Source of the DNA: an uncultured archaeon
Lineage (GTDB): Archaea > Aenigmatarchaeota > Aenigmatarchaeia > QMZP01
Assembly: GCA_964353635.1 (NCBI GenBank)
Contig: CAYGVS010000002.1
Span: 1 to 63,109, forward strand
Length of the DNA stretch: 63,109 bases
Direction of reading: 5' to 3'
Made by a program: the position numbers and the translations under genes. Shown here piece after piece: positions 5,656 to 37,202 of this stretch (position 1 is its first letter; every line of letters starts with the position of its first letter). A model generated the notes under the pieces. It did not search any database, had not been told where the DNA came from, and was given only the letters and a program-made list of their open reading frames with translations.

Positions 5656-5684
5656 TCGGGATGAAGGATTAAGGTGCATTCGGA

Positions 5685-6587: not shown

Positions 6588-6594
6588 TTTGAGA

Positions 6595-8600: not shown

Positions 8601-8615
8601 GATGCCCCCGACGGG
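8601..8615. repeat. 15-nt direct repeat, the copy overlapping the genuine tRNA-Arg 3' end
   Basis: GATGCCCCCGACGGG. Positions 8603-8615 are the last 13 nt of the tRNA. Confidence 0.9.
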
Positions 8616-8729
8616 ATTTGAACCCGCGACTTCCAGCTTGCTTCTCTCATTGACTCTCTTTCGGAAAGCCTAGAATCTTCTAAATCAAATTAGAAGGCTG
8701 GCGCTCTATCCAAACTGAGCTACGGAGGC
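8603..8729 (-). tRNA. tRNA-Arg(UCU) with a 52-nt intron at the canonical 37/38 site; CCA not encoded
   Basis: Folds as GCCTCCG-TA-GCTC-AGTTTGGATA-GAGC-G-CCAGC-CTTCTA[52-nt intron]A-GCTGG-AAGTC-GCGGG-TTCAAAT-CCCGT-CGGGGGC-A. The intron contains TTAGAAG, complementary to the anticodon loop. Confidence 0.85.
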
Positions 8730-10313: not shown

Positions 10314-11480
10314 CTAACCGAACTTCTTCTTTTTCTTCCTGAAGAACCTCCTCCAGATGAAGTATGCTACCGCGGCCACTATGAAAACAATCACTAGCGT
10401 GCTCGCAGGATTGCTCTGGTTGGGGTTCTCGAATCTCAGGTAGACTGGCTTTTCCTCATGGAAATCCTGGAGGTTGGTGCTTGTGTACGTGAGCACAAGG
10501 ACTCCATTCCCCTCTGTGGTAAGCGGGAACTCGAGCGTGGTCTTCTTTGTGGCCTTGAGCTGGCTCGTATAATCCACGCCCACCGTCTGGTTGTTCACTA
10601 GGAGAGTCCCTTCCAGGGAGTTGGCATCAGCCGTTCCCTTGTTGGCTATGTCTATCTGTATCACATCCCTGTCGAAGTTCGCCTGGATGTTGACTACCTC
10701 GATGTTTATGACCCCGTTGACAGGAATCCCCAAAGAGAAGGACTTCTGCACGGATGCGCCGGTCTCATCCTGGTAGTCCAGCGTCAGGGTAGCCGGGTAT
10801 GTCTGCTGGCCTGCTGTGCTGTCGACAGAGAGCTGGATGTCGGCTATAGAATCGCCATCCGGTGCCATATCACCAAGATACGCTGATCCCTTCGAAAGCA
10901 CAGGGATAAGCATCCCGGATGTTGAGGCGAAGGTCGCCTTCACACCATTGGCTGTCCCTGTCCCGACGTTCTTTACCTTGGCGAAGACGTCCACTATCCC
11001 GCCAGGCTCTATGTTCTGGGGAGTGGTCCACGTGCTATCTATTATGAAATCCGGCCGTCCCTGAACATTCACCACAACCTTCTTGGAAAGGTAGCTGTTC
11101 GGGTTGCTGACGTAGTATATCCTGAATTCAAGCTCGTACTGGTTTGATACTGTGTTATCGTTGACCTTCAGGTCGTAAGAAACCTTCACAGAGCCGGAAG
11201 CAGATATCTTAGAGTATGTGGAAGTCTTCTCTGTCCCCGGAAGCAGCTTGAATGGATCTGTGGGCGCGATTTCAACCACAATATTATTTGCATCCCCCAG
11301 CCCCGTGTTCTGCACCTCAATCTCTACATTAACGTTCTTCCCAGGCTCAGCCGGATAGGGCGTCTGCTTGGTTAAAAGCACGTTTAGTATTGGGGCTTGA
11401 CCCGTATTCTGCGCCTGGACGGCTGCTGCAGGCAATATCAGAAGAGCCATCAATGCAGCAACCACAAATATCTTTTTCAT
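10314..11480 (-). CDS. secreted CARDB/COG1361-like (S-layer-domain-like) surface protein with C-terminal TM anchor, module A
   Basis: Sec signal peptide, repeated beta-rich ~110-aa Ig-like segments, C-terminal TM plus KKKKK tail. Start lies 2 nt after the stop of the ABC ATPase gene. Confidence 0.6.
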   Translation of the reverse strand: MKKIFVVAALMALLILPAAAVQAQNTGQAPILNVLLTKQTPYPAEPGKNVNVEIEVQNTGLGDANNIVVEIAPTDPFKLLPGTEKTSTYSKISASGSVKVSYDLKVNDNTVSNQYELEFRIYYVSNPNSYLSKKVVVNVQGRPDFIIDSTWTTPQNIEPGGIVDVFAKVKNVGTGTANGVKATFASTSGMLIPVLSKGSAYLGDMAPDGDSIADIQLSVDSTAGQQTYPATLTLDYQDETGASVQKSFSLGIPVNGVINIEVVNIQANFDRDVIQIDIANKGTADANSLEGTLLVNNQTVGVDYTSQLKATKKTTLEFPLTTEGNGVLVLTYTSTNLQDFHEEKPVYLRFENPNQSNPASTLVIVFIVAAVAYFIWRRFFRKKKKKFG

Positions 11481-11481: not shown

Positions 11482-12276
11482 CTAATCTCCTCCTTTCTGA
11501 ACTAATGCAGGTTTCCTAGAAACCCTGCTCACTTTCGCTTCATGCTCCCTGCTACCACCCGGATAGGTCTCGTTGAGCACCTGTCCATCAAGCAGGTTTA
11601 TGATCTTGTCTGAATACTGCGCGACCCTTGAGTCGTGAGTGACCACGATTATCGTGTAGCCCTCCTCTGCGTTGAGCTTCTTGAGGAGATTGAGTATCAT
11701 CTGCCCGGTCTTGGTGTCAAGGTTTCCCGTAGGCTCGTCACCGAGGATTATCTGAGGATTGTTGATAAGAGATCGGGCTATCGCGACCCTCTGCTGCTGG
11801 CCACCAGAAAGCTCGGAAGGCTTGTGAGTCATCCTGTCCTCAAGGCCGACGAGCTTTAGCAGCCGCTTGGCCTTGTCCTCAGCCTCCCATTTGGGTTTAC
11901 CCGCAATCCTCATGGGCATCTCCACATTCTCAAGCGCTGTGAAGCTCTGGATGAGATTGTACTGTTGGAACACGAAGCCAATCTTTTCTCTGCGCAGCAA
12001 GGCAAGGTCGTCATCATCAAGGCCAATCACATTCTTCCCATCTATGAATACTTTTCCTTCAGTCGGCTTGAGAAGGCATCCAAGTATGTCTAGGAGCGTG
12101 GTCTTGCCGCTCCCTGAAGGACCCATGATAGAGACAAAGCTCCTCCTTTCCACATGTATGTTGATGTCCTGTAGGACAGTGATTTCGCATTTGCCTTCTT
12201 CTCCGTAGCATTTCTTTATTCCTTTCGTCTCAATCAAATAGCCATCTTCATGCTTTGGCTCAGTTTTTCCTTTCAT
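11482..12276 (-). CDS. ABC transporter ATP-binding protein, MacB/LolD-like, module A
   Basis: Walker [10 protein letters not shown], signature LSGGQQQRVAIAR, Walker [12 protein letters not shown]. The ATG at 12276 is preceded by AGTGAT. Confidence 0.9.
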   Translation of the reverse strand: MKGKTEPKHEDGYLIETKGIKKCYGEEGKCEITVLQDINIHVERRSFVSIMGPSGSGKTTLLDILGCLLKPTEGKVFIDGKNVIGLDDDDLALLRREKIGFVFQQYNLIQSFTALENVEMPMRIAGKPKWEAEDKAKRLLKLVGLEDRMTHKPSELSGGQQQRVAIARSLINNPQIILGDEPTGNLDTKTGQMILNLLKKLNAEEGYTIIVVTHDSRVAQYSDKIINLLDGQVLNETYPGGSREHEAKVSRVSRKPALVQKGGD

Positions 12277-12284
12277 GAAAATCA

Positions 12285-13421
12285 CTATTCATACCTCAAT
12301 GCTTCCACAGGGTCGAGCCTGGCTGCCTGCCTCGCTGGGTAGAACCCTCCTATGAGCCCGAGGAAAAGCGCGAATGCAAGGCCTTCTAGCGCCAGGGTCG
12401 GCGTCACATAGCCTTGGATGGTGCCTCCGGACAGCGCTCCCAAGCCGATTGCGGCGCCGATTCCGATTAGAATCCCCCCAACACCGCCGATTACGCTGAT
12501 CATTGCGGATTCTGTGAGTATCTGCCTGAGTATCATGCTATTGGTCGCGCCTATGGCTTTCATCACCCCAATCTCCTTCCTTCTCTCCATCACGGCCATA
12601 ATCATGGTGTTCATCACTCCAAGGCCTCCAACGAATGCGGCGATAGCACCTATGCCGAACGTGAAGAATCTTATCTGGTCCACTATCTGCGATGCTTGCC
12701 TTGCAGTATCAGCTGCTGTCAAGGCGTTAAGGTTGTCGCTTGCGTCATTTATGGCAGCGGCGACCTTCTCTGTGTCCCTGACATCGTCAGGCACCACGTA
12801 AATGGCATAATAAGTATCCTTATTCATGATGGCTTGCAGGTTGTCGAGCGGGACTATCACAGCGGAGTCAATCTCGCTTATGTCAGTCTTCTCAACAATT
12901 CCAACTATCTGAAAATCATCATTTTCCACAGTCCATGTATCGCCAACCTGGAGATTATATTTGTCCGCAAGAGGCTTTCCTATAATAGCTACATCGGAAT
13001 CGCCTGTTTCCAGGGTCCTCCCCTGGTACATCTTGGTGTTCTCCCCCACGAAATACTGTAGCTTATCGGGTTCCATGCCTATGATGAGGTATTCAGGTCC
13101 GGTAAATCCTGACATAGGTCCTGTCTTCACTGAGATAGGAACGACATCCTTAATCCCGCTAACAGTGTTAATGATGTCCAGATCATCCTTGGTCAGCTCG
13201 GTGCCTAGGCCAAAGATGCCGGCGTCCTTGTTTCTGACCGTTATCTTCCCAGCAGTCAGCTGGAGGCTGTTCGTAATGGAGACGTTAAGTCCTTCAGCTA
13301 TCGAACCTAGCGCCACCACCGCTCCTATCCCTATGAGTATCCCGAGGACAGTGAGCGTCGTCCTTGTTCTGTTCCTCATGATATTCTTGATTGCAAGGTC
13401 CAACATGCTATTCCTCCGCAA
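12285..13421 (-). CDS. ABC transporter permease, FtsX/MacB-type, module A
   Basis: N-terminal TM, large extracytoplasmic domain, then a C-terminal FtsX 3-TM bundle ending ...PARQAARLDPVEALRYE. Confidence 0.85.
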   Translation of the reverse strand: MRRNSMLDLAIKNIMRNRTRTTLTVLGILIGIGAVVALGSIAEGLNVSITNSLQLTAGKITVRNKDAGIFGLGTELTKDDLDIINTVSGIKDVVPISVKTGPMSGFTGPEYLIIGMEPDKLQYFVGENTKMYQGRTLETGDSDVAIIGKPLADKYNLQVGDTWTVENDDFQIVGIVEKTDISEIDSAVIVPLDNLQAIMNKDTYYAIYVVPDDVRDTEKVAAAINDASDNLNALTAADTARQASQIVDQIRFFTFGIGAIAAFVGGLGVMNTMIMAVMERRKEIGVMKAIGATNSMILRQILTESAMISVIGGVGGILIGIGAAIGLGALSGGTIQGYVTPTLALEGLAFALFLGLIGGFYPARQAARLDPVEALRYE

Positions 13422-13875
13422 GGGCCTGGAGCCGCCTCTGGAATTCCTCCTTCAGGCGGAGCGCCTTCTTCAGCTTCTCCGGGTCTCTCCTTATCTTATC
13501 AAAAATATCAAGCCCCTTCCAGAGTTCCCTGCCATGCCCGGTCTCACCCATCATCCTGAACATGGCAACCATCTTCTGCTTCATCTCAGCCTTGTGCAAC
13601 TCGAACTTCTTTATCCTTTCCTCTCCTTCTTTGGTGAGGACATATATCTTCCTTTTGCCTTTGGTTTTCTCGGTTATGAAGCTGTTTGCCTTGAGCTTCT
13701 GGAGCATGGGATAGACAGAGCCTGGGGACGGCTTCCAGCATGCGCACTCCTCTGAGATGCGCTTCATTATCTCATAGCCGTAGTGGGGTTTATCCAGTAT
13801 CCTAAGAATGTGCATCTCCATGAAGCCCCTAGGGATGGAGAGCGTTAGCTTCCCGGGGAGGGAGTCCTTTTTCAT
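13408..13875 (-). CDS. PadR-family transcriptional regulator
   Basis: HILRILDKPHYGYEIMKRI...GSVYPMLQKLK...GKRKIYVLTKEGEE. Overlaps the permease start by 14 nt. Confidence 0.8.
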   Translation of the reverse strand: MKKDSLPGKLTLSIPRGFMEMHILRILDKPHYGYEIMKRISEECACWKPSPGSVYPMLQKLKANSFITEKTKGKRKIYVLTKEGEERIKKFELHKAEMKQKMVAMFRMMGETGHGRELWKGLDIFDKIRRDPEKLKKALRLKEEFQRRLQALAEE

Positions 13876-13942
13876 AAATATCACTAATGATATATCACTT
13901 AAGATATTTAAGGCTTTATTTTCCTCGGGTAGCAGCTAATAA

Positions 13943-16111
13943 TCAACCACATTTGACATCTGCTATCATGCCTTCAAGAGCCTTTCCAATAAGGTCGCCG
14001 AACATAGTGCTTGACGCCATTGCCACAAGAAAATAGATGAACATGCCTATGATAAGCATTTTTGCTACAGTGTTCCACTGCAGGATTTTATTCTCCCCGT
14101 GGCCTATCTTGGTCGTGAAAACAGCCAGGATTATTATGACCTCCATGACATATATCCCCACTATGAGCTGGAAAAGCGATGGGGATATGACAGTTTCCAT
14201 GTTGGCGAAGAGCCCTGATATGTTCATTCCTCCGATGCCTCCTGTCTCACTCATTGATATTGAATTAAGGTAGCAGCTCAGCTTAACAAGCACCTGAATC
14301 ATCACGTCTGCCATTGAGACTATGAGGCCTGTTATCAAAGGTGTGAGGAAATATGCCTGGAATTTCATGGAGGAGGTGGTCTCTGAAAGCATCTCCCTTA
14401 TGTATTCCTGCGTCTCACGGATGTTCTTCAAGTAGCGTGATATCCTGAGCATGGCTTCCGAGGCATAGGTCACGCCTTTCTTCGATGTGTCCACAACCGC
14501 ATACATGATGTTTCTAATGAGCTTGGAGGGATAGTACCTAAGCGCTCCGTATTTGCGGTTGAACAGGGCTTCATCGAATGTCATCCCAAGGGTTTTTATG
14601 TTCCTGAGGGCTATCTTGAACAGGTTGGATATCTCGATGTCCTTCATATCGCCTATGGAGCGCTCCATGGCGACCTCTGTTGGCGTCCCGCCGGCAATCC
14701 TGTTCCCCAGCTGGAACAGGGCGAGCTCGAACTGGCCTTCTATATCTTCAACATCCTTCTGGATCGTTAGCCTTTGGAACGTTGAAAGGAAGTAATATAT
14801 CGCAATCCCTGACGCTATTCCGAGCAGGAGGAATATGGACATAGCCAAGGATAACGCTGGGCATGCGTCTCCCCACGGTTCTCCGAGGAAGGTGCAGCTC
14901 CCTGTATTGGCATCCTTCATCCCCAGCGAAAGCACAGCTGGATTCTCAATGAAGAAGTATCCTGCTGGAACTATGAAGGCAAGCATGACTAAGATTGCCA
15001 GAGGCAGGGCTGGGAAAGACTTGCCCTTTCCAATCCAGAAGCTTCCCTTTGGAGGAAGGTCTGGATGGTGCGAGGTATCCACCTGGGAGAAGGTGACAGG
15101 CCTCTTGCTCAGCGTGTTGTTGATGAACCAGATTATCATCAGGGGCAGGATAATGTCATAGCCCAGGACGAAATATACAGGAGAGACCATGTCGCTCATG
15201 AACACAGCAGCCAGCGGAGCCATTATCGTTCCCATCACAGGAAGGATAATCCCCATCATGTGTATAATCATCACGGGAAGGTTGAGCTCCTGGGCATAGT
15301 GCTTCATCCTTGTCTTCGTGCCGTCAAGTATGACGTCAAGGGCCTCGTCCAGGATCTTCCTGCCCCTTTCCGGGATCTGCGTCTCAGAGTCGCGTATGAG
15401 GCGGAGCGCCTCTGCGAATTCCTCATTCTCAGGCTTCCATTTGGCTATATAATCAGTAAGCGCTTCGGAGGCGGAATAGTATTTCCTCATCTCTATGTCC
15501 CATATCAGCTTCCTCATATCCCAGGAAAGGGCGCCGGATATGTTGGCGGCGGAGAACCTGAGCGCGCGCTCCAGATTGGGAGAGATCCTCATGGATACAA
15601 CCATGTAGAGAGTGGCAAGGACGACCTCGGAGCTTGCCTGTACCCTCAGCTTCTTCACAAGATTCGCAGGATACTTGTAGAAATAATACGCAAGGCCCAA
15701 ACCCATGGCTATTATCACAAGGCTATAGATGGGATTGCTAAGGGAGGCTATCGTGAAGGCTGCGCCAATCACAATAAAAGCTATCAGAGTCAGGACAAAG
15801 AGCGACATCACGCTTGCAGGAGTGATAAGCAGCCCTGTGAACGCTATCTGTTTCCCAAGGTCTTCTTCTGTCTTCTTTCCCGGGGTGACCTTTAGGAGCT
15901 TTTCCGAGAATCTTGCAAGCTTCTCATACCAGATGAGCTTCCTTTTCTCCGTCTGCTTGAATATCCTGTACTCCCTGGAAGATATGACAGGCCTGGGATT
16001 GGAAGGAGGCATGTACATCCTATGCCTGCGCTGCTCCAGGGCGATCCTCCTTAGCTGAATCCTCTCCAGCCTGTAGTCATCCCCAGGCTTCTTCTTCCCG
16101 AAAAGGCCCAT
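13943..16111 (-). CDS. stand-alone FlaJ/TadC/PilC-like platform membrane protein (two T2SSF-like repeats), 722 aa
   Basis: Two cytoplasmic helical domains that resemble the T2SSF domain (NLERALRFSAANISGALSWDMRKLIWDIE...SASEAL and GGTPTEVAMERSIGDMKD...MTFDEAL), each followed by TM bundles. Confidence 0.55.
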   Translation of the reverse strand: MGLFGKKKPGDDYRLERIQLRRIALEQRRHRMYMPPSNPRPVISSREYRIFKQTEKRKLIWYEKLARFSEKLLKVTPGKKTEEDLGKQIAFTGLLITPASVMSLFVLTLIAFIVIGAAFTIASLSNPIYSLVIIAMGLGLAYYFYKYPANLVKKLRVQASSEVVLATLYMVVSMRISPNLERALRFSAANISGALSWDMRKLIWDIEMRKYYSASEALTDYIAKWKPENEEFAEALRLIRDSETQIPERGRKILDEALDVILDGTKTRMKHYAQELNLPVMIIHMMGIILPVMGTIMAPLAAVFMSDMVSPVYFVLGYDIILPLMIIWFINNTLSKRPVTFSQVDTSHHPDLPPKGSFWIGKGKSFPALPLAILVMLAFIVPAGYFFIENPAVLSLGMKDANTGSCTFLGEPWGDACPALSLAMSIFLLLGIASGIAIYYFLSTFQRLTIQKDVEDIEGQFELALFQLGNRIAGGTPTEVAMERSIGDMKDIEISNLFKIALRNIKTLGMTFDEALFNRKYGALRYYPSKLIRNIMYAVVDTSKKGVTYASEAMLRISRYLKNIRETQEYIREMLSETTSSMKFQAYFLTPLITGLIVSMADVMIQVLVKLSCYLNSISMSETGGIGGMNISGLFANMETVISPSLFQLIVGIYVMEVIIILAVFTTKIGHGENKILQWNTVAKMLIIGMFIYFLVAMASSTMFGDLIGKALEGMIADVKCG

Positions 16112-16163
16112 ATTTATAATTATCCCGCTTGTTATTATACATAAGCCGACAGAAAGTGATTTG

Positions 16164-17570
16164 ATGACAATGAAGTTCTACAACACCCTAAAAAAAGGAA
16201 AGGAGGCCTTCAAGCCATTGAAAAAAGGCGAGGCCAGGATGTACAATTGTGGCCCAACTGTCTATTCCTTTGCTCACATAGGGAACTTCCGCTCCTATGT
16301 TTTCGCTGATTTGCTGCGAAGGTACTTGGAATGGAAGGGCTTCAAGGTGAAGCAGATAATGAACCTCACTGACGTGGATGATAAGACCATAAGGAACTCC
16401 CAAAAGGAGGGGATTGCGCTCAAGCAGTTCACAGAGAAGTATGAGAAGGCCTTCTTCGAGGACCTTAGGGCGCTTGACATAAGGCCGGCAAGCCTTTACC
16501 CTAAGGCTACGGAACACATTAAGGAGATGGTGGCTATAGTAAAGGCCCTTCTGGAAAAGGGTTACGCATACAAAGGAGCAGACGGGATATATTTCAGCAT
16601 CCGGAAGTTCAAAGGTTATGGAAAGCTTTCAGGGACCAGCCTTGAAGGGCTCAAGGCTGGAGCTAGGGTTAGCCAGGATGAGTATGACAAAGCCAAGGCC
16701 AGCGATTTCGCGCTATGGAAATTCTGGAGCAAGGAGGATGGCAGCGTCTTCTGGGAGACTGAGATAGGGAAGGGTCGGCCGGGCTGGCACATCGAATGCA
16801 CTGCCATGAGCATGAAATATCTCGGGAGCACATTTGACATGCACACAGGAGGAGTGGACCTGATATTCCCCCACCATGAGAATGAGATTGCCCAGAGCGA
16901 GGCATATACAGGGAAGCCTTTTGCAAGATACTGGATTCACAACGAGCACCTCCTTGTTGACGGCCAGAAGATGGCCAAGTCCTTGGGGAACTTCTTCACA
17001 CTCAGGGACCTGATAAAGAAGGGTCACGATCCCAGAGCCATAAGGTATTTCCTCCTGTCTGGCCACTACAGGGCAAAGCTCAACTTCACTGAGGAGGCCA
17101 TGAGATCAGCTGAGGAGACTGTAAAAGGCCTTCGAAGCTTCGTTGCGGAGATGCGCGCGGCCAACTCAAAGGGCTCGAACGAGAAGATAACAAAGCTTCT
17201 CACAGATGCGAAGAAGGCCTTTGAAGAAAGTATGGATGATGACCTTAACACCCCCCGTGCGCTCAAAGCGGTATTCGATATGATAAAGGAGCTGAACAGG
17301 CTAGCTCCTGTTTCAGAGACAGATGCCAGGTACGCTCTTGATACTCTTTTCAGCTTTGATAAAGTGCTTGGCCTGGGGCTTTCGGAGCTGGGGAAGGTCT
17401 GGCACTCTCCCGAGGAAGCGGAGCCTGAGGTAAGGGAGCTCATTTTGAAGAGGGAGTCTTTCCGAAAGGAGAAGAAATGGAAGGACGCGGACCGCATAAG
17501 GGACTCCCTTAATAAGAAGGGAATTAAGGTCGAGGACACCCCACAGGGGCCCAGGTGGAGGAAGGGTTAG
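16164..17570 (+). CDS. cysS: cysteinyl-tRNA synthetase
   Basis: HIGN (HIGH) and KMAKS (KMSKS) motifs plus the GRPGWHIEC zinc site. The track's start is TTG; the first ATG is at 16164. Confidence 0.95.
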   Translation: MTMKFYNTLKKGKEAFKPLKKGEARMYNCGPTVYSFAHIGNFRSYVFADLLRRYLEWKGFKVKQIMNLTDVDDKTIRNSQKEGIALKQFTEKYEKAFFEDLRALDIRPASLYPKATEHIKEMVAIVKALLEKGYAYKGADGIYFSIRKFKGYGKLSGTSLEGLKAGARVSQDEYDKAKASDFALWKFWSKEDGSVFWETEIGKGRPGWHIECTAMSMKYLGSTFDMHTGGVDLIFPHHENEIAQSEAYTGKPFARYWIHNEHLLVDGQKMAKSLGNFFTLRDLIKKGHDPRAIRYFLLSGHYRAKLNFTEEAMRSAEETVKGLRSFVAEMRAANSKGSNEKITKLLTDAKKAFEESMDDDLNTPRALKAVFDMIKELNRLAPVSETDARYALDTLFSFDKVLGLGLSELGKVWHSPEEAEPEVRELILKRESFRKEKKWKDADRIRDSLNKKGIKVEDTPQGPRWRKG

Positions 17571-18043: not shown

Positions 18044-19552
18044 CTACTTGTATATGTATCCCATGGTCATCACTATCTCAACAGGCTGGAACATGTCCTG
18101 GTCATAGGTCTTGTAATAAGCTGTTTTCACGGGTACATTCATTATACTGTTCTCCACTATGTCATATTCCTCGCTGGCAGCCCATACGACTAGCGCTTTC
18201 AGCATAGTCTGCACTTCAGTGGAAAGGCTTCCCGACGGAGCAAGCCAGGCCGTTCTGCCCTGCACTCCTGCATATTTGTTTGCGATGCATGCAGACCTCA
18301 TGACATCCTTCTGGATAAGCACTGAGCTTCTTGAGTCGCTCACTGGTTCTATCTTTTCATTTGCAATAAGGCCTGTGAAGTTATGCGGCCTGGCAAAGGT
18401 GACCCTTATGTTGTCGAACCTCGCCTGCCCGTACTCCACATCAAGACCTATCTGGCTGCTTGGCGGGATACTACTGAGCGTCTGGCTGGCCAGGACAAGG
18501 ATGCCATTAAGGTAGACCTTTATGCTCTGGTTATACGTCACGATGTCGACCTTGTACCACGTCCCGTTGTTTATTGTATAGCTTTTCATGCCTCTGCTTT
18601 GGGAGCCTTCAGAAACGCTGACCCTGTCAGCATCCACGTCAAGGTTTATCCTTACAGAGCTAGCCGTCACATTGTACATGATGAAGGTCACATTGTGCTG
18701 AAGACCTCCTTCGGTCATGAAGAGGCCGCTCAATGAGTAAGGGCCGTCAATGAGCTGGGAGTAGATGGTTACAGACTCGTTACCGTCGCCTGTTGTGTTC
18801 ATCCCAACATAGTTCTGGCTGTTGACGCTCCATCCTCCCGTTCCTGTAACCTTGTTCCATCTGTTATCCCCATTGCTGAAATCATCATAGGCAAGAGGGA
18901 TGCTGTGGAAGATGTTATAGATGCTGTAATAAGGACTCGAGCTTTGTTTCGAACCGAACTCTTCCTGGGAAGCGCTCAATGACAGAGCGCTGTTCCATTT
19001 CAGGCCGAAGAAATCCTGCTGCACGAGGTCTATTTCGGAAGCGTCAAGATTCCTGATCTCAACCAATCCCTTCCCTGCCCCAAGATACTGGTAGATTTGA
19101 GTGTAGTTGTTGGTCATGTTGTAGTCAAAGGCAATCACAACATCGTTATTATGGGGGAATGAGATGAAGCCAGGATCTATCTGGTTTATGCTGAAATCGA
19201 CCCTCTGGCCGTTTATCACGAACGGCTGGAGTATAGAGCTCATTGTTGCGGTCTCAGTGTCGTTGCATATGCAGCCGACCTCTATCCTGGGCACGATGAC
19301 GTTCCTTAACTTCAGCGAGTAGAGAGTGTTTGCAGTTGTCAGATTCATAAGGGACCTTTGAACCTCTGTGGAATTGAACCAGTTAATCCCTTTCTTGTCA
19401 AGGGTAAACAATATATCATTGGCCTGCGTCCAGAGCCTGACACTCTCCCAGTCCATCTGCTGAGTCGGGATACTGAAGAATTGGAAAAAAAGAAAGAAGG
19501 CTACCAAGCTGACGATTACAATCTCAACTATATGTAGGAAGCCCTTCCGCAT
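18044..19552 (-). CDS. large pilin-like protein with concanavalin/LamG-like lectin domain
   Basis: MRKG|FLHIVEIVIVSLVAFFLFF is a class III-like signal. The C-terminal segment (WNKVTGTGGWSVNSQNY...WYKVDIVTYNQSIKVYLNG) is LamG/ConA-like. Many N-x-S/T sequons. The ATG is at 19552. Confidence 0.6.
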   Translation of the reverse strand: MRKGFLHIVEIVIVSLVAFFLFFQFFSIPTQQMDWESVRLWTQANDILFTLDKKGINWFNSTEVQRSLMNLTTANTLYSLKLRNVIVPRIEVGCICNDTETATMSSILQPFVINGQRVDFSINQIDPGFISFPHNNDVVIAFDYNMTNNYTQIYQYLGAGKGLVEIRNLDASEIDLVQQDFFGLKWNSALSLSASQEEFGSKQSSSPYYSIYNIFHSIPLAYDDFSNGDNRWNKVTGTGGWSVNSQNYVGMNTTGDGNESVTIYSQLIDGPYSLSGLFMTEGGLQHNVTFIMYNVTASSVRINLDVDADRVSVSEGSQSRGMKSYTINNGTWYKVDIVTYNQSIKVYLNGILVLASQTLSSIPPSSQIGLDVEYGQARFDNIRVTFARPHNFTGLIANEKIEPVSDSRSSVLIQKDVMRSACIANKYAGVQGRTAWLAPSGSLSTEVQTMLKALVVWAASEEYDIVENSIMNVPVKTAYYKTYDQDMFQPVEIVMTMGYIYK

Positions 19553-19600
19553 GATAAAGATATTGGAAACCAGCAATAAATAGCATTGCCTGCTGTAGAA

Positions 19601-21163
19601 CTATTTTCTCTTGGCCTTAGGCTTGTGCTGCTGCCTTGAGGCCTTAGGCTGCTGGGACCTCGAGGATCCAGTGATTTCCGTCTCAATGGTCTTGATAAGC
19701 TCCTCCCTGTTCTTATAATACTCTGAAACAACCCGGCCTACTTCATGAAGGTCCTTGACCTTGTTCTTGACGAGCCACTTCAGGACCTTCTTCTTGTCAT
19801 CAACATCCCTCTTTATGTCATCATCGCTCATCCCTGAATAGAGCTTTATGTCATTAATTACCCTGTAGGACTTAGCCAGCTCCACAATGGTATCATCGGA
19901 CGCTATCCACCTGAAGATGACGTTGAGCTCTATCCCCATCTGCTTCACCCCAGCCGTGGGTATGAGCTCTGCCACCTCAAGTACCCTCCTTATCCCTCTC
20001 CTTCTGTCCCTATGCATCACCACTATCATCTGAAGGCTTCCAAGGAGCGCCACAGGTATGTCTATAGGAGGGTTGATCAGCCTTCTGAAGGTCTCGTCCG
20101 CAGTGTTGGCGTGAAGGGTTGAATAAACAGAGTGCCCGGTGTTTATGGCTTCGAAAAGCACCTGGGCCTCCTTGCCCCTCCTTATCTCCCCCACTATTAT
20201 CCTGTCCGGCCTCATCCTGAGCGCATTGATCATAAGCTGGAGCATCGTCACCTCTCCCATGCCTTCAGGGTTGGGGGGTCTTGTGGTCATCGGCACCCAG
20301 TGAAGGTACTTCGGGAGCTGTATCTCTCTCGTGTCTTCTATCGAGATGATTCTCTGATTGGGCTGGATGAAGCATGTGAGCGCATTAAGAAGCGAGGTCT
20401 TTCCGGAAGCTGTTCCGCCAGCCACAACAATATTAAGCTCGTATTGAATGGCGAGCCAGAGGAAGGCGGCCACATCCAAGGATAGGGTCCCGCTTTCAAT
20501 GAAATCCGTTATGGTCCACGGCCTCCTGGCGAACTTCCTTATGGTCAAGGTGTTCCCACCCGAGCTTATTGGAAAGAGCGTGGCGTTGGCCCTGTCACCT
20601 GTGGTGAGATAAGCGTCCATGAGAGGGTTGAGGTTGGTTATCTGGGTTCCCACCCTCCTGCCGATGGCAGCGGAATAATTGTAAATCTGCGTTTCGCTTG
20701 GAATGGTTATGTTTGTCTTCAGCCAGCCGAGCCTCAGGTGATACACCCAAATCGGCGTCTTGGAGTCGTTTATGACTATCTCCTCAAGGTTCTTGTCCTG
20801 CAGGAGTATCTCCATGGGTCCAAGGCCCAGGGAGTTCTGTATAAGGATCCCGACAAGAATCTTCTGGTTCTTCTCGGACAGGCTGGGTAAGTCCTTCTTG
20901 ACCAGCTTGAGCGCTTTTTCAGCGAATTCCGCCTTCAGCTCATTCAGCTCCTTGGCGCTCAGAATCTCCTCCGGCTCTATTGACAGTTCTGTTATGAGCT
21001 TCTCCCTTATGGAGTCAAGCGCTGCCCTTGTTGCAATCTCTAGTTCAGGGAATATCAGCTGGTATATGGGAACGAACTCCAGCGGGTCGTGCAGCACCTT
21101 CACGGTTGCAGGGACATTATCCACAACCAGGTCATATGATTCAATGACTTCTTCCTTCTTCAT
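19601..21163 (-). CDS. FlaI/PilB/VirB11-family secretion ATPase (ATPase 2)
   Basis: Walker A GGTASGKTS, then SIEDTREI, VGEIRRGKEA and YSTLHA motifs. Confidence 0.9.
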   Translation of the reverse strand: MKKEEVIESYDLVVDNVPATVKVLHDPLEFVPIYQLIFPELEIATRAALDSIREKLITELSIEPEEILSAKELNELKAEFAEKALKLVKKDLPSLSEKNQKILVGILIQNSLGLGPMEILLQDKNLEEIVINDSKTPIWVYHLRLGWLKTNITIPSETQIYNYSAAIGRRVGTQITNLNPLMDAYLTTGDRANATLFPISSGGNTLTIRKFARRPWTITDFIESGTLSLDVAAFLWLAIQYELNIVVAGGTASGKTSLLNALTCFIQPNQRIISIEDTREIQLPKYLHWVPMTTRPPNPEGMGEVTMLQLMINALRMRPDRIIVGEIRRGKEAQVLFEAINTGHSVYSTLHANTADETFRRLINPPIDIPVALLGSLQMIVVMHRDRRRGIRRVLEVAELIPTAGVKQMGIELNVIFRWIASDDTIVELAKSYRVINDIKLYSGMSDDDIKRDVDDKKKVLKWLVKNKVKDLHEVGRVVSEYYKNREELIKTIETEITGSSRSQQPKASRQQHKPKAKRK

Positions 21164-21173
21164 ACATATCCTG

Positions 21174-21767
21174 CTATTTCTTGACCACTTTCTTTGAAAT
21201 CTTCCTTCTCATCCCAGCCACAGCCCAAACCAGCGCCACCACAATCGCAACAAGGATTATTATGTTAAGCGGCCATGGCAGGAAAGAGAACAGGGAGAAT
21301 ATCCTCCCTAAAATCATGCTTATCTGTAATCGGATGCCTGCAGTGAACGAGTTGCTCACGACCATCACGTAACCCAGCAAGACCATCAGCCCTCCTATCA
21401 GGGCTATCAGCAACTTTGGTGCTTTCTTGCCAGGCTTCCTTACAGGCTTCCATTCAGTCTCTTTCAAAGGCTTTTGCTTTTCGGAAAATATTATGACAGG
21501 GCTGCCGAATAGGGGATAATGCACCTTGGCGAGCTTGTGATCCTCTATTATCTTCGCCCAGGAGGCTATCTGCTCCCCGGTTACATCGAATTCCTTTTGG
21601 GCTTCAGGGAAGGTCATCCTCTTCTTGCTCTTTATTGCATTGAAGAACCTGTCAAGATTGGTCTCGATGTAAAGGGATTTCTCTCCATCCCTTTTCCATT
21701 TGACATCCATATCCCTGAAAAGGTCATTCTCAGGCTCCGGCATCTTTTCCTTCTTAGGCATCTCCAA
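21174..21767 (-). CDS. membrane protein with cytoplasmic wHTH-like N-domain (locus 2 accessory)
   Basis: 197 aa: a soluble N-terminal ~110 aa, a Lys-rich linker, then 2-3 TM segments. Ends 10 nt before the ATPase start. Confidence 0.5.
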   Translation of the reverse strand: MEMPKKEKMPEPENDLFRDMDVKWKRDGEKSLYIETNLDRFFNAIKSKKRMTFPEAQKEFDVTGEQIASWAKIIEDHKLAKVHYPLFGSPVIIFSEKQKPLKETEWKPVRKPGKKAPKLLIALIGGLMVLLGYVMVVSNSFTAGIRLQISMILGRIFSLFSFLPWPLNIIILVAIVVALVWAVAGMRRKISKKVVKK

Positions 21768-21826
21768 CCAGCTTATTAAATAATGTATTACCCTCTATAT
21801 TATTGTTGCTCCTACCAGATTAATTT

Positions 21827-22585
21827 TTAATATGAAAGCACTTCAACGTAGTTGAAAAGCTCTCCAGTGCATGAGGATTTTGTGAGATTATCGATTGGCA
21901 TCTCCGAAAGCGGGACATTGCAGACCATTGATGTTCCGATAATGGACGCCGGTATGCCTGGGGGCAGGTTGACTGCGTTCAGCACCTCAAAATATATCCT
22001 GCAAATCTCAGGCAGCCTGGTTACCCTTATGTATGCCGTCCAGTATCCGTAAGGATTGAGCTTGAACTCTGTGCTGACGATTTCTGAGTTTATACAGTTG
22101 TCAAGATAAGTCAGCGCGGCATCTTTGCATTCACTGTCATCCATGCTGCAGCTTATTTTGGGCAGCTGGAATATGTTCCCCACGCCGCCTGCCTGGCCTT
22201 CGAAAGGAACTGCATAGTCATAGAGCGAGCCTGGGCATGCCGTCGCTGAGGCGTTCCCAATCTCTGAGAGGCTGTAATTGCACGTAAGGTTGCGGCCTAT
22301 AAGATAGGAATCCTCATCTCTTGGGGCGTCCAGCACCTGCTCTGTGCGCACGCACCTGTCACCTTCCATGGTTATGTTAATCATCATGCGTATGCCATCC
22401 CTGCCTACTATTATGAAGGAAGATGGTGCGCATTGGTCCTTTTTTACTTCCAGGTCATTCATGCATGATGTGTCATTGGCATCGCAGGTGACGGTTATCA
22501 CCGGGGCGATATGGGCGGAATACGCAAGCAGCGCTGCAAAAAAAGCAGCGGCCAATCCAGCAACAACAGCCTTTTTCATTCTCAT
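21827..22585 (-). CDS. secreted Cys-rich protein made of two ~105-aa 6-Cys repeats
   Basis: Sec signal MRMKKAVVAGLAAAFFAALLAYSA. The two halves align (TCNYSLSEIGNASATACPGSLYDY versus VCNVPLSEMPIDNLTKSSCTGELFNY). Confidence 0.6.
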   Translation of the reverse strand: MRMKKAVVAGLAAAFFAALLAYSAHIAPVITVTCDANDTSCMNDLEVKKDQCAPSSFIIVGRDGIRMMINITMEGDRCVRTEQVLDAPRDEDSYLIGRNLTCNYSLSEIGNASATACPGSLYDYAVPFEGQAGGVGNIFQLPKISCSMDDSECKDAALTYLDNCINSEIVSTEFKLNPYGYWTAYIRVTRLPEICRIYFEVLNAVNLPPGIPASIIGTSMVCNVPLSEMPIDNLTKSSCTGELFNYVEVLSY

Positions 22586-22608
22586 GATATTCTCACACCC
22601 TCTTTAAT

Positions 22609-23820
22609 CTAACACACCACATAGCTTAGCTCCATGAGGTTATATGCTGAAGCCTCTTCCGGCCGTATCCTAAGCCACCCAGGCGCCCATCTAACTTTAC
22701 TGCATCCCAGATAGCTCTGGTTTGAAAAGAAAAGATAGTCTGTTCTGGTCTGGTTAGGCTTGCTTGGGATCCCTATCTCATCCATAACAAAGCTCTCAAG
22801 GCCCATTCCATCCGGCGATTCAGACAGGTCGCCTTCCAGCCTCTGCAGGAAGTTCGGGCCTCTCCCCTTGTAATAATATCCCATTTCCTCTTCAATGACA
22901 GGCATGAGCCATGCGCTTGATGTGACGCTATCTATGTAAACGGTCTGATTCTCTGGAATATTTTGCAAGGCGTTTGCAGCCCCTGATACGAAGCACAAAA
23001 CGCCCCTGGAGCCAAGATCCTCGGCATCCTCCTCAACCACCCCCTCAAAGCCCTGCACCGTCGCGTCAGAAATCCCGGACGCATTGCTGATTATAAGGAT
23101 TTTGCTTGCATGATTCGGGTCTGCAGGATCATAGGTAGAGTTGCCGGAGCAGTTCCCGATATTCATCGAGCCCTGCGTTTTCTTCGTGAAATATGCGAAC
23201 GGATATGCATCAATTACCTTCTTGACGTATCCTGTTGTGCTCAAAGGGAATATCGGGTCCTCGAGCCCCTCCACGGACACAAGGACTTCCTTTCTCAGGG
23301 TCTTGTCTATCCTTGATATGTTAAGGCTGTCAGAGACGTTCACGGTCAGCAGCATTGAAACCTTAAGGTTTATGCCGTCATAGTTCTCCACCCTTACGTC
23401 AGAGAAGTTTGATTCCACACTGAACTGGTGATTCTGGGAGAGCATCCTGGACCTCCATTGTTCCAGGGTGTTGTTTGCCATGAGAACGCTTGGGCTGCCG
23501 TAGAGGCTGGCATTTGTTATCAGCTCATGTATCCTCAATGTCGAATTGTCAAGATAAGTCCCATCAATCGTGACCTTGTTAACTGCTGATAGGAGAGCTC
23601 TTTTGGCTATGATCTTCAGCGCCCTTGAAAAGTCGTTCTCTATCTGCTTTTCCACCTGGTGCTGCTGATCCGAGATGACCTTATCCTTCACGCCGAACCT
23701 GATGTTCTGGCTTTCCGTGACGTACACCAGGAGGAAAAGGACCAGCGGTATTATCGCCACTACCATTATTATGGAATACATCTGGCCTTTTTTCCAGTTT
23801 GGCTCAGCGGGCTTTTTCAT
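22609..23820 (-). CDS. large pilin-like protein (403 aa)
   Basis: MKKPAEPNWKKGQ|MYSIIMVVAIIPLVLFLLVYV is a class III-like signal. The ATG at 23820 overlaps the upstream stop as ATGA. Confidence 0.6.
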   Translation of the reverse strand: MKKPAEPNWKKGQMYSIIMVVAIIPLVLFLLVYVTESQNIRFGVKDKVISDQQHQVEKQIENDFSRALKIIAKRALLSAVNKVTIDGTYLDNSTLRIHELITNASLYGSPSVLMANNTLEQWRSRMLSQNHQFSVESNFSDVRVENYDGINLKVSMLLTVNVSDSLNISRIDKTLRKEVLVSVEGLEDPIFPLSTTGYVKKVIDAYPFAYFTKKTQGSMNIGNCSGNSTYDPADPNHASKILIISNASGISDATVQGFEGVVEEDAEDLGSRGVLCFVSGAANALQNIPENQTVYIDSVTSSAWLMPVIEEEMGYYYKGRGPNFLQRLEGDLSESPDGMGLESFVMDEIGIPSKPNQTRTDYLFFSNQSYLGCSKVRWAPGWLRIRPEEASAYNLMELSYVVC

Positions 23821-26654
23821 GACCATATCCTTATCTCCATTTCCGCAGGCCCCCAAAGGCTCGGTATGCCTGATGCGGTCACTGTATCGAACTGGACATT
23901 AGATGTTATCTGAAGATCAACAGGGTTGGTTTGGTTAATGCCGTCATACGGGTTTTCCAGACTTCCGTTTCCATATGAAGACGGGCTGAGATCGTATATG
24001 AAGTTCATCACATCCATCAGCCGCATGAAGGAATCATCAACGGAATCGTTTTGCGGATCGAAGATGTCTGAGGGATCCGGGCCGTATGACACGTCTGAAT
24101 ACCCGTCATAATTGTTGTCGCCGTCCCAATCGTAATAAATCCTCACGCTCGCCCCTTTTGCCTTGGGGAAGACATCGCTGTATCCCTCCAGGAATATACC
24201 GTCCACCTTAAGCGTGTACACAACCCTGTCATCAGGCGAAGCGCCTTTTCCCTCAGTGGAATTAAGCCCTGTGCCTATCTTCACCGAGTTGTTTCCGACT
24301 CCGACATAGGAAACAGGAATGTTTACGATGAACGGATCGCCAAGCGAAATGTAATCCAATTCATAGTCCCCGAGCCAGAAAATCCTCATCCAGTCTGAAG
24401 TAACTGAGCTGTTAACATAAAGCCTGTCAGTCCAGAAATTCGACGAATAGGACGTTATCTTGGCATCCACAACCTCCATGTTCTCAGGTATGTAGTACCA
24501 AGCCTCCTTGGTTTTGGTCGCAGGGTCTGTTATGTTACCCGGCCCGCTTATGTTGCTTATCTTCTGCGTCTCGAAGGTCAGCTCAACCTCTCCGTATCCT
24601 GCAGGCTTAATGGATGAGGAGTAGTCCAGCCTGATATACGAATCCTTGAAGAGAGCGGTGGTGTTCGAGATGCCGCTCACCTCTATCGTCTGCGCCACAT
24701 AGCTTGCGTTGACGACTTCCCTGGCTATTTCCCTGAAGGTTTGCGCCAGCTCCGTCACGTTGCTGTAGTAGTATTTCCCGCCTCCACAAACCGCCGTTCT
24801 GCTCAGCGTTCCATTGTCTACATCTGCTTCTGTCTCGCCAAATCCAATTGTATAGACTGTAATGTTATACACAGTATATGCTTCGCAGGCCGCCTTGATT
24901 GTATCGTCTTTTGCGTCTATGTCAGAGTCGCCATCTATGTCAGAGTTTGCGTTGTTGCACCTGACGTTCGCCTCCCCATCAGTCATTATCACAACACTCT
25001 TCCTTCTTGACTGGCTGCTGAGGTCCCTTGTCATGTTGGCGGCCCTGATTATCCCGCAGCATATGCATGTGTTGCCTCCTGATGTATAGCCTTCTATGCT
25101 TGAATTCAGAAGAGTCTTGTTGGTGGTGAGGTTCACATAGCTGTTTACAGCGGTCGAATAGGAAACGAGGCCCACCCTATTTCCTGGATAGCTGTCATTA
25201 AGGACTATGCCGACGAACTCCTTGTCAGCACCCTTCGCAACATCAAGCTTCGTCATGTTGCATACATCCTTGTCATACACATAATAGTTTGAATACGTTC
25301 CGCATCCACATGTCCCGCATACAGGAGTGGAGCAGCCGAGAGTGGCGTTGAAGGCGCATTCCATATAGGAGTTGTAGCAGAAAATGAACCGCTTCCTGCA
25401 GTCATAGTGGCAGTATGGGGCTTTGCCCCAAATGGCGCAATCATTCATGCTCCCCGAAACATCTGTCACAACTACCGAGTCCCCTATCCCCAGTCCCGAG
25501 CTTACATAGGAAACGTTGACGAGACCCACTCGATACGGCACGGTTTTGTTGCTCATGAAGGAATAATCAAGAAGGCCTGAAAGATACGAGCTGTCCAAGT
25601 CCACAGTCTCTCCTCCAGAGGAGTTGCCTTCGTATACAGTTATGTTGCCAATGGTCATGAAAACGGTGTAATTGCTCCTGAAATGGAGATGAGCTGAGAT
25701 GTTCTTCAGGCTCCCGGGCACATAGAAGGAGGAATAGATGTTTATCAGGCCGTCTATCCCCGGAAGGTACTCTGTCTTTGTGGCATTTTCCCCGTAAGCC
25801 TCCCCTGAATCAGTCAGCTGCGATGTATTGTAGGTAATCTTCAGATATCCACCCCCAATGTACATGCTCTGGTTTGAAGTGAAGTTGATCTGGATGGTGT
25901 TGTTGCCCATAACAAAATACTGCAGGTAGCCGTTTGATATCGCCCAGCTGTCAGCGCGCATGTCACCGATGAAATTCCTTCCATAATCGCCGGAATAGTT
26001 GCCGTTTATGTAAAGGGAGAAGTTATTCCCTGTGCTCATCTCCATGCTGGAGGACACTATGTTGTCGAATTCAGGAAGGGTGAAGTCAGCGCTTATGTTC
26101 CCGTCTCCTATGTAGCCGCCAAAGTAGACATAATAGGTGGATATCCTGTTTGCCTTGCTCAGCCGTGTCCTAGCAGAATAGCCGGATACAGGCTTCCCTG
26201 TCTCATATCCTGACACGATAAGCGATAGCTTTGCCAGGAAGCTCGCTTCTGTTGTGTTCTTCACAAATATATTCTGCCCATCTATCATCAGCTGATAATC
26301 AAGCCCAGAGCCATTGAGAATGCGCGAGAACGTGAGGTTGGCAAGATTACCTGCCTCTGTCATGTTTCCTTCAGCCCAGAAGGAGCCGATGGCATCAAGT
26401 ATGGTTTTGTCCATGTCTTCTTCGGTTATCACCCCGCTGCTCAGATAGCCTTGCACGAGCGGGCTGTCCCCTACGGAGCTTAGCTTTGCCTGTTCTAAAA
26501 CATTGATCAAATCCTTAGCTGAATAGTAAAGCCTTTGGTATTTCAGCTCCGGAGAGGAATAGCTAAAAGAGAGAGCTGAAAGGAAAAGGGCGAGTGTAAA
26601 GACAAGCCCTAGGACTATTATTGCATCCAGGGAGAAGACAAAGCCTCTTTTCAT
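23817..26654 (-). CDS. giant pilin-like adhesin with a vWA domain (945 aa)
   Basis: MKRG|FVFSLDAIIVLGLVFTLALFL. The vWA MIDAS motif DVSGSM sits at nt ~25443-25469, followed by ...RVGLVSYS...GGNT...VVIMTDGEAN. Very many N-x-S/T sequons. The track's start at 26657 is TTG; the ATG is at 26654, with a TATA-like ATTATATAGG ~25 nt upstream. Confidence 0.75.
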   Translation of the reverse strand: MKRGFVFSLDAIIVLGLVFTLALFLSALSFSYSSPELKYQRLYYSAKDLINVLEQAKLSSVGDSPLVQGYLSSGVITEEDMDKTILDAIGSFWAEGNMTEAGNLANLTFSRILNGSGLDYQLMIDGQNIFVKNTTEASFLAKLSLIVSGYETGKPVSGYSARTRLSKANRISTYYVYFGGYIGDGNISADFTLPEFDNIVSSSMEMSTGNNFSLYINGNYSGDYGRNFIGDMRADSWAISNGYLQYFVMGNNTIQINFTSNQSMYIGGGYLKITYNTSQLTDSGEAYGENATKTEYLPGIDGLINIYSSFYVPGSLKNISAHLHFRSNYTVFMTIGNITVYEGNSSGGETVDLDSSYLSGLLDYSFMSNKTVPYRVGLVNVSYVSSGLGIGDSVVVTDVSGSMNDCAIWGKAPYCHYDCRKRFIFCYNSYMECAFNATLGCSTPVCGTCGCGTYSNYYVYDKDVCNMTKLDVAKGADKEFVGIVLNDSYPGNRVGLVSYSTAVNSYVNLTTNKTLLNSSIEGYTSGGNTCICCGIIRAANMTRDLSSQSRRKSVVIMTDGEANVRCNNANSDIDGDSDIDAKDDTIKAACEAYTVYNITVYTIGFGETEADVDNGTLSRTAVCGGGKYYYSNVTELAQTFREIAREVVNASYVAQTIEVSGISNTTALFKDSYIRLDYSSSIKPAGYGEVELTFETQKISNISGPGNITDPATKTKEAWYYIPENMEVVDAKITSYSSNFWTDRLYVNSSVTSDWMRIFWLGDYELDYISLGDPFIVNIPVSYVGVGNNSVKIGTGLNSTEGKGASPDDRVVYTLKVDGIFLEGYSDVFPKAKGASVRIYYDWDGDNNYDGYSDVSYGPDPSDIFDPQNDSVDDSFMRLMDVMNFIYDLSPSSYGNGSLENPYDGINQTNPVDLQITSNVQFDTVTASGIPSLWGPAEMEIRIWS

Positions 26655-37025: not shown

Positions 37026-37202
37026 ACTGTCACTCCTGATACTGGAACTACGTATATTATATTAGTCTGCCCGGATAATAAATATTCAGCAAGTTTTGTC
37101 TCTGACGGGTGGCGGAAAGGCGCCAAGAGTCGCCTTCTAACCGAAATCCGCTTTAAGGTGAAAACGAAGAGAGAAGGCGCCAATAGGCGCCTTCAGGTGA
37201 AC

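Follow-up and report, generated by a model that had tools for sequence, protein, structure and literature searches.

How DPANN archaea recognize and hold their hosts is an open question, and a compact minus-strand operon of an uncultured archaeon of the Aenigmatarchaeota puts it in concrete terms: does the operon encode a new kind of attachment machine or part of a known kind of pilus? It spans 17.6 to 26.7 kb of a 63,109-nt contig stretch (here called the window, to which all coordinates refer unless a related locus is named). The original prediction saw in this operon a new apparatus that displays giant adhesin-like proteins without a small pilin. The locus was rightly singled out and is more than a chance association of genes, but the evidence does not at present support a new machine without a pilin. 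We consider it probable that the locus is the motor and accessory modular pilin (tip-adhesin) part of a DPANN-wide Tad/Epd-like type IV pilus, in rearranged form. Its giant proteins make it a plausible host-attachment device, not a new kind of machine.

Seven genes, named g1 to g7 in transcription order, were taken from the list of open reading frames (ORFs):

23817-26654/26657, minus strand: g1, vWA protein, 945/946 aa
22609-23820, minus strand: g2, large protein with a class-III-type N-terminus, 403 aa counted from ATG
21827-22585, minus strand: g3, Cys-rich protein, 252 aa
21174-21767, minus strand: g4, membrane protein, 197 aa
19601-21163, minus strand: g5, secretion ATPase, 520 aa
18044-19552, minus strand: g6, protein with a ConA-like domain, 502 aa
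17582-18010, minus strand: g7, cytoplasmic ORF, 142 aa, or 136 aa from ATG

The g2 start and g1 stop share an ATGA overlap at 23817-23820, and gaps between operon genes are 10 to 59 nt. A separate public ENA assembly from the same population (L082) matches the window exactly in g1, and its genes are called at 945/403/252/195/520/502/136 aa, the last being g7. The ORF list and these calls bear out the positions, lengths, overlap, and gaps given originally, and the domain calls made at the time also hold (vWA in g1, secretion ATPase in g5, ConA/LamG-like domain in g6, 6-Cys repeats in g3, and a winged helix-turn-helix-like domain plus transmembrane [TM] segments in g4). A TATA-like A/T-rich element (ATATTATATA) lies 20 to 30 nt upstream of the g1 start and may be the operon promoter. 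A scan for sigma-70 promoters and terminators was uninformative, the sigma-70 model being unsuited to archaea, and a search for tandem and direct repeats across the operon found none. The window begins inside the 3′ end of a 23S rRNA gene and also encodes fibrillarin, cysteinyl-tRNA synthetase (CysRS), and an ATP-dependent DNA ligase.

The relatives of the locus speak most directly to what it is. A total of 80 related loci, all in DPANN metagenome-assembled genomes (MAGs) and with an ATPase 46 to 85% identical to g5, were translated in all ORFs and searched with the window proteins. The nearest relatives of g5 (83 to 85% identity) are found in Candidatus Aenigmatarchaeota MAGs, and orthologues at 46 to 72% occur in other Aenigmatarchaeota and in Nanohaloarchaeota, Woesearchaeota, Parvarchaeota, and Micrarchaeota, which places the source of the window among DPANN. 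A core of g1, g2, g4, and the ATPase recurs in loci of Aenigmatarchaeota, Nanohaloarchaeota, Woesearchaeota, and Parvarchaeota. At least two short (~260 to 340 aa) TadC-like genes were present in 45 of the 80 loci, usually right behind the ATPase. Many loci further encode three to five small proteins that resemble pilins. In 25 of the 80, a pilin of 129 to 161 aa, called here the MTYGW pilin for its start, [KR][GA]Q-(A/S)-A-(M/I)-E-(Y/F)-L-M-T-Y-G-W, was encoded within 10 kb of the ATPase, usually behind the second platform gene. The full pilus set is clearest in L029 (Aenigmatarchaeota), where five pilin-like genes in a fixed order (130, 137, 168, 147, and 314 aa) precede g4, the genes for a MinD-like and the secretion ATPase, TadC1 and TadC2, and, last, an MTYGW pilin of 136 aa that begins ...AQSAMEYLMTYGW. 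L034, L046 (Parvarchaeota), and L051 (Nanohaloarchaeota) are also canonical, and a Peptidase_A24-like gene (E value, 1.9e-4) adjoins the locus in L051. Searched against Pfam, the small pilins of the related loci gave a single weak Class_IIIsignal match (E value, 1.4e-3) and are unclassifiable by that database. Judged from their sequences, these canonical loci are complete type IV pilus loci with Tad/Epd-like architecture. The idea of a new pilin-less apparatus is at odds with such loci, in which orthologous genes stand with platform genes, small pilin-like genes, and a 129- to 161-aa pilin, and clusters of this kind have already been described (PMC9563170). Across DPANN, the orthologous loci essentially map onto a described pilus class with a small pilin, the outcome that the original prediction had itself named as counting against it. 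As side observations, a MinD/ParA-like ATPase in a TadZ/FleN-like position lies between g4 and the secretion ATPase in some canonical relatives (8995-10002 of L029), and the Peptidase_A24-like gene occupies 7958-8902 of L051; the window operon has neither gene.

The giant proteins themselves fit into such loci, and g1 most clearly. It carries a Pfam VWA/VWA_2 match (E value, 1e-9) and is laid out as an N-terminal pilin-like module (residues ~1 to 115), a beta domain (120 to 380), a vWA domain (392 to 652), and a beta-rich C-terminal domain (658 to 945). The AlphaFold2 (AF2) model (predicted local distance difference test [pLDDT] score, 85.9) shows the same succession, starting from a TM helix and a helical N-terminal module. 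The metal ion-dependent adhesion site (MIDAS) is intact (D399/S401/S403/T530/D560), and the vWA domain holds a 10-Cys insert at residues 407 to 466. Between 43 and 49 of 49 homologues conserve the MIDAS residues and the N-terminal motif. Foldseek neighbors of the model are vWA adhesins, including the Streptococcus sanguinis minor pilin PilB (7b7p; E value, 3.6e-8), the type V pilus tip protein Mfa5, and the sortase-pilus tip adhesin PitA. The adhesion and lectin modules that had been ascribed to the giant proteins are thus present as a vWA domain with an intact MIDAS in g1 and a ConA-like domain in g6.

A profile built from g1 residues 1 to 118 recovered all g1 homologues together with stand-alone proteins of 134 to 175 aa (E values, 2e-7 to 1e-3) that share a KGF-x-F-[ST]-L-D start, e.g., MSKGFVFSLDV... 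in L080 and LKGFYFSLDA... in L055. These small homologues of the g1 N-terminus are found in loci without a giant g1. In the gene maps of L029, L043, and L080 they occupy pilin position 4, the slot of g1, and pilin position 5 of the same three loci is held by short g2-family members of 273 to 314 aa (jackhmmer E value of 1e-9 for L029). Because the N-module of g1 exists as small stand-alone proteins at the same locus position, the giants are best interpreted as minor pilins of modular build or as tip adhesins, and g1 is predicted from sequence and model to be one. The hidden Markov model (HMM) of the g1 N-module also matched g6 N-termini weakly (3e-5 to 5e-3). In two canonical loci the first minor pilin is the enlarged one (4167-6338 of L080, 723 aa, MIKGQVSVEYL...; 5094-7127 of L043, 677 aa, MKAQAALEYM...), which shows that the enlarged minor pilin is not the same one in every DPANN lineage. 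A tip-adhesin complex, which the original prediction had mentioned only in passing, is the alternative favored by the stand-alone N-modules, the vWA domain with its MIDAS, and the synteny.

The N-termini are consistent with this role. All three big proteins match the FlaFind 1.2 motif, [KRDE][GA][ALIFQMVED][ILMVTAS] followed by a hydrophobic stretch (PMC4307647), with starts of MKRG/FVFSLDA in g1, KKG/QMYSII in g2, and MRKG/FLHIVEI in g6 (the slash marks the predicted cleavage site) and predicted cleavage contexts of RG/FV, KG/QM, and KG/FL, respectively. The class-III-type N-termini originally proposed for these proteins therefore stand by motif fit and conservation, with the site in g2 shifted to a likely KKG/Q from GQ/M. 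Conservation of the cleavage context in homologues had been set beforehand as a test, and it was found: an alignment of 49 g1 homologues has K/R at −2 in 46 sequences, G/A at −1 in 48, and D/E at +6 in all 49. The g1 consensus, [KR]-G-F-x-F-S-L-D-A, also holds in ORFs from six-frame translation of related loci in several phyla; g2 homologues likewise retain [KR]-G-Q-x-Y-S or KG-[IMF]-x-F-[ST], and six g6 homologues retain [RK]-K-G-F-x-[HR]-[IV]-V-E-I. Since a plain signal anchor would not need such conservation at −2, −1, and +6, these N-termini are likely to be more than that, and cleavage of g1, g2, and g6 by a prepilin peptidase is predicted. N-x-S/T sequons, with which the big proteins had been said to be loaded, occur at 2 to 3 times the compositional expectation (38 in g1, 12 in g2, 6 in g3, and 12 in g6). 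The excess is not seen in cytoplasmic proteins of the window, and it argues that g1, g2, g3, and g6 are extracellular glycoproteins.

The partners of g1 differ in how widely they are conserved. The g2 family, without a Pfam match, comprises 979 clusters at 50% identity in size classes of ~400 aa and ~300 to 330 aa and was found in 55 of the 80 loci; of the 29 loci carrying both g1 and g2, 25 have the two genes side by side. The AF2 model of g2 (pLDDT, 78) has a long N-terminal helix (residues 11 to 86), then a beta sheet and a second domain. Its best Foldseek matches were partial ones to swivel-domain and NTF2-like folds (E value, 2e-3), and we assign no function from the fold; position and pairing with g1 lead us to predict that g2 is a large minor pilin. 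In 57 of 58 loci the gene immediately upstream of the ATPase is g4, whose product has a cytoplasmic N-terminal domain, two TM segments, and the conserved motif ETxIDKLYxLV...IEEWxxILEEHxL. Weak MarR/HTH_24 matches come from a homologue of g4, and we predict that g4 assists the assembly motor from the membrane. Present in the closest relatives only, g6 matches Pfam 3keto-disac_hyd/Laminin_G_3, a ConA-like family (E value, 7e-8, above the 3keto-disac_hyd cutoff; domain at residues ~283 to 393); a sequence search of g6 against the PDB gave no match. It is predicted from these features to be a lectin-type modular pilin.

Two genes of the operon are more local. The Cys residues of g3 form two 6-Cys sets with matching spacing (34, 41, 52, 78, 102, and 117; 146, 153, 164, 195, 222, and 239). 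Only 4 of the 80 loci encode a g3 homologue, and an unrelated secreted protein fills the g3 slot elsewhere; g3 may be a secreted or anchored lineage-specific accessory. We considered g3 as a fourth class III substrate and rejected it: the window copy fits K-A-V-V, but its homologues lack the [KR][GA] context. No homologue of g7 was found in any of the 80 loci, the nearest relatives included, and in the latter g6 directly abuts CysRS with g7 absent. For these reasons g7 probably lies outside the system, as either a lineage-specific insertion or a spurious ORF.

The motor, g5, is a FlaI/PilB/TadA-family secretion ATPase with a Pfam T2SSE match (E value, 2e-35) and a Walker A motif (GGTASGKT) and Asp and His boxes visible in the translation. 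By PDB sequence scores only, it is closest to Archaeoglobus fulgidus GspE (afGspE; 244 bits) and equidistant from FlaI (189 bits) and the Tad ATPase CpaF (186 bits), with E values from 2e-71 to 1e-53. The ATPase of locus 1, a separate pilus locus of the window described below, is also closest to afGspE and scored 293 bits to FlaI versus 152 bits to CpaF. Against a TadA-type NCBIfam model, g5 scored 198 bits and the locus 1 ATPase scored 167 bits. Two other assignments were tried and rejected. An archaellum does not fit, with g5 at 291 bits against a FlaI cutoff of 550 and no archaellin or FlaF/G/H genes in the operon; nor does a bindosome, with g5 at 143 bits against a BasE cutoff of 1,000 and no SBP domain in g1, g2, or g6. 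The Epd-like/Tad-like clade is defined by two contiguous platform genes with one T2SSF domain each, a short major pilin, and an ATPase branching with EpdL/CpaF (PMC6668835), and System 1 archaeal type IV pili have been reported in DPANN (bioRxiv 10.64898/2026.04.22.720090). Two contiguous single-T2SSF platform genes were found in 45 of the 80 related loci and not at the window locus; the major pilin candidates of related loci, at 129 to 161 aa, are not short in this sense, and the window locus has none. The PDB scores of g5, together with the two single-domain platform genes in relatives, tilt the locus toward the Epd/Tad-like side. We therefore treat it as a locus that works like a Tad/Epd-type pilus, and we make no claim as to the clade membership of g5.

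The original prediction also stated that no platform gene was present. This is right for the inside of the operon, but a candidate 1.9 kb downstream was missed:

13943-16111, minus strand: p722, unsplit FlaJ/TadC-type platform protein, 722 aa, 8 TM segments

An opposite-strand CysRS gene (16161-17570) stands between p722 and the operon. Aligned with hhalign, p722 residues 84 to 339 match the TadC1 profile (98.0%; E value, 3e-13) and residues 430 to 699 match the TadC2 profile (91.9%). The Pfam T2SSF match has an E value of 0.06 and covers the whole profile, and a sequence search of p722 against the PDB found no match. Gene order g5-g6-CysRS-p722-PadR is kept in the three nearest relatives, L001, L002, and L028, and this synteny makes p722 the most likely platform for g5. 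Set against the core of archaeal type IV filament (TFF) or type IV pilus (T4P) systems as defined in bioRxiv 10.64898/2026.04.22.720090, the locus has an ATPase of the VirB11/T2SSE family in g5, a polytopic platform only through p722, and within the window no filament-forming small class-III protein of its own.

Behind p722 follow a PadR gene (13408-13884), a MacB/FtsX permease (12285-13421), an ABC ATPase (11482-12285), and a CARDB surface protein (10314-11480). The block of p722, MacB/FtsX-like permease, and ABC ATPase recurs in L001 and L002, with a secreted protein after it in L001. PadR follows p722 in L002 and L028; in L001, no separate PadR ORF was detected and the p722 ORF measures 846 aa. 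Three Woesearchaeota-like loci (L072, L073, and L077), also without a split platform pair, have a p722 orthologue adjoining g4-g5 and directly after a second ATPase. That second ATPase is orthologous (E value, ~1e-240) to the third secretion ATPase of the window (37158-39467, plus strand; 769 aa, with 11 Cys and a CxxC-rich N-terminal extension). The order in these three loci suggests that some DPANN combine two ATPases with one platform. A pair of paralogous 5-TM proteins (168 and 180 aa) with similar N-termini is encoded side by side at 34415-34921 and 34970-35512 (plus strand), upstream of the third ATPase region. Elsewhere in the window, an Rfam tRNA match (8603-8729, minus strand; 56.7 bits, 127 nt) probably marks an archaeal tRNA gene with an intron, whereas ARAGORN called no tRNA anywhere in the window.

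Taken together as a mechanism, g1, g2, and g6 would be made as membrane-anchored precursors and cut after [KR]-G by a prepilin peptidase encoded elsewhere. Their N-terminal helices would then form a priming complex that ends at the pilus tip, a placement suggested by their size, since all three appear too bulky for the filament body. The tip would expose the metal-dependent vWA adhesion domain of g1 and the ConA/LamG-type carbohydrate-binding domain of g6. Held at the membrane with g4, g5 would drive assembly on a FlaJ/TadC-type platform, most likely p722, and the filament body would consist of a small pilin encoded in trans.

Several observations weigh against a pilus with modular tip adhesins. 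No MTYGW-type small pilin, minor pilins 1 to 3, or split TadB/C pair for g5 was found in the 63-kb window, so the original remark that no small pilin lies in cis is accurate for pilins of the related-locus type. In L001 to L007, too, neither pilins 1 to 3 nor the MTYGW pilin nor a split platform pair is encoded within 10 kb of the ATPase, and in some of L008 to L024 a TadC pair lies ~4.5 kb away with housekeeping genes between and no pilin. That the major pilin is encoded in trans is accordingly an assumption, made because none is near the ATPase in the window or its closest relatives. No obvious prepilin peptidase candidate was seen among the polytopic proteins of the window, where not every ORF was scanned. 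The N-terminal region of g1 is predicted by AF2 to be a helical bundle, unlike a textbook pilin head, and Foldseek comparison of the g2 model with the PDB gave no significant match and no likeness to a solved pilin. In addition, p722 may serve, or be shared with, another motor, since its orthologue follows the third-ATPase type in L072, L073, and L077. Finally, the g5 scores do not separate Epd-like systems from euryarchaeal clade 2.

Part of this evidence can be turned into an explanation of its own, in which the sub-lineage has lost its filament subunit, and g5 and the platform pull g1, g2, and g6 alone out of the membrane and join them into a short tip-only stub that carries the vWA and lectin modules across the envelope. 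In line with this, the window has neither the MTYGW pilin nor minor pilins 1 to 3, and both are absent within 10 kb of the ATPase throughout L001 to L024. The unsplit p722 replaces the split pair in the window, L001, L002, and L028, no platform gene appears within the stretch examined in L003 and L004, and the extra modular protein g6 has been added beside the ATPase in exactly these genomes. If this explanation were true, an ATPase, a winged helix-turn-helix/TM adaptor, an unsplit platform, and three giant glycoproteins would make up a host-attachment organ of an episymbiotic archaeon. We regard it as unlikely. Genes of the system are scattered in this clade: the g1 homologue of the L023 genome stands alone, ~16 kb from the ATPase, and no pilins were found around it (the L081 context). 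With genes so dispersed, absence in cis is weak evidence of absence. Archaeal type IV pili normally have stand-alone major pilins, which, like large class-III adhesin-like proteins (DUF2341), are a feature of clade 1 (PMC4858521). The MTYGW pilin family gave at least 6,918 matches, of which the best 120 were inspected, and the major pilin of this sub-lineage is probably encoded in trans. In haloarchaea, there are known cases of ATPase/TadC modules working with pilins encoded in trans.

A filament is closer at hand in locus 1 (1323-7524, plus strand), a separate PilA-type pilus locus whose pilins begin MKKG/ITPIVATIILL. It encodes a coiled-coil protein, two tandem near-identical 144-aa pilins (their genes form a 300-nt direct repeat, 96%), pilin-like proteins of 211 and 146 aa, a 608-aa ATPase, and two single-T2SSF proteins, and Nanohaloarchaeota carry the same block in loci L050 and L053. 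It is possible that g1, g2, and g6 decorate or prime the locus 1 pilus and that g5 is a second, differently regulated motor on its platform; locus 1 holds the window's only small pilins and only split platform pair, and the [KR][GA] cleavage context is common to all the signals. Such sharing seems improbable, however, given that locus 1 owns an ATPase, that the p150-pilA-pilA-p211-p146-ATPase block is independent in Nanohaloarchaeota with a complete g5-type locus nearby, and that, across phyla, g5-type ATPases are linked to pilins of the MTYGW and not the PilA type. Least credible of all is that g1, g2, and g6 are ordinary surface adhesins with uncleaved N-terminal signal anchors, independent of the ATPase and merely coregulated with it: their cleavage is read from a motif, the g2 model resembles no pilin, and g3 in the same operon has a plain signal or anchor, but the −2, −1, and +6 positions are conserved across phyla, small stand-alone homologues of the g1 N-module sit among the pilin genes of canonical loci, and the ATPase linkage persists from Aenigmatarchaeota to Woesearchaeota and Nanohaloarchaeota.

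Read as part of a type IV pilus, the locus and its relatives give a parts list for host attachment in DPANN, with a candidate major pilin (...Q-A-A-M-E-Y-L-M-T-Y-G-W...), ordered minor pilins, a g1/g2 pair found across phyla, and g4. The proposed pilins with adhesion modules in these loci are directly testable candidate host-attachment adhesins.

Known systems resemble the locus to different degrees. In the bindosome (Bas) of Saccharolobus/Sulfolobus, large proteins with class III signals are also served by an ATPase of FlaI-like type and a FlaJ-like platform, but the Bas substrates are sugar-binding proteins of ABC transporters, and loci orthologous to that of the window encode genuine small pilins. 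TadG of bacterial Tad pili, as cited in PMC4858521, is likewise a vWA protein in a Tad system, and an Epd-like archaeal ancestor has been proposed for that system (PMC6668835); in g1, however, no Tad/TadE Pfam domain was detected. PilY1 of bacterial type IVa pili, a large vWA adhesin associated with the minor pilins that initiate the pilus and form its cap, is comparable in role but is a nonpilin with a beta-propeller. The closest described loci are the DPANN Tad-type clusters (TadA/B/C/V) of the Nanohaloarchaeota "Nucleotidisoterales" and of Undinarchaeota, in which no pilins were annotated (PMC9563170). They share ATPase family and locus type with the window, and L035, L037, and L070 come from QJJ MAGs of that study; most relatives analyzed here have TadB-/TadC-like genes behind the ATPase and sometimes a TadV-like peptidase. 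The present analysis differs in identifying the pilin set and the conserved g1 (vWA), g2, and g4, and the window locus differs in having an unsplit platform nearby in place of a split TadB/C pair and small pilins.

The Epd pilus of Methanococcus maripaludis (clade 1/System 1) has, like the related loci, two single-domain platform genes and many class-III minor pilins (PMC4858521; bioRxiv 10.64898/2026.04.22.720090; PMC6668835). Clade 1 also shares large class-III adhesin-like proteins with ConA-superfamily domains, proposed to be PilY1-like tip adhesins, and major pilins often encoded elsewhere (PMC4858521). In contrast, the candidate DPANN major pilin measures 129 to 161 aa versus ~70 aa, Pfam did not detect DUF2341 in the window operon, and the window locus lacks the split platform pair. 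In S. sanguinis, tip-located adhesins result when a pilin module bears a grafted vWA module, as in PilB, or a ConA-like lectin module, as in PilC (PMC8179133, PMC9934059); such modular pilins are predicted to fit only at the pilus tip, and the MIDAS of PilB is functional (PMC8179133). The window system is archaeal, and its pilin modules have no detectable sequence relationship to those of PilB and PilC; g1 is twice as large as PilB and has two additional beta domains, and its vWA domain contains a Cys-rich insert. A survey of modular pilins in that work used a bacterial N-terminal signature and did not mention archaea (PMC8179133). Measured by the features of that class, all three big proteins have a class III signal, g1 has a separable module, and g6 has a ConA-like module, while none is identifiable in g2. 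The design of g1 and g6 is the same as that of PilB and PilC, a class III signal and pilin module with a grafted vWA or lectin module, and as far as sequence can tell, pilins with grafted adhesion modules, so far established in bacteria, also exist in archaea.

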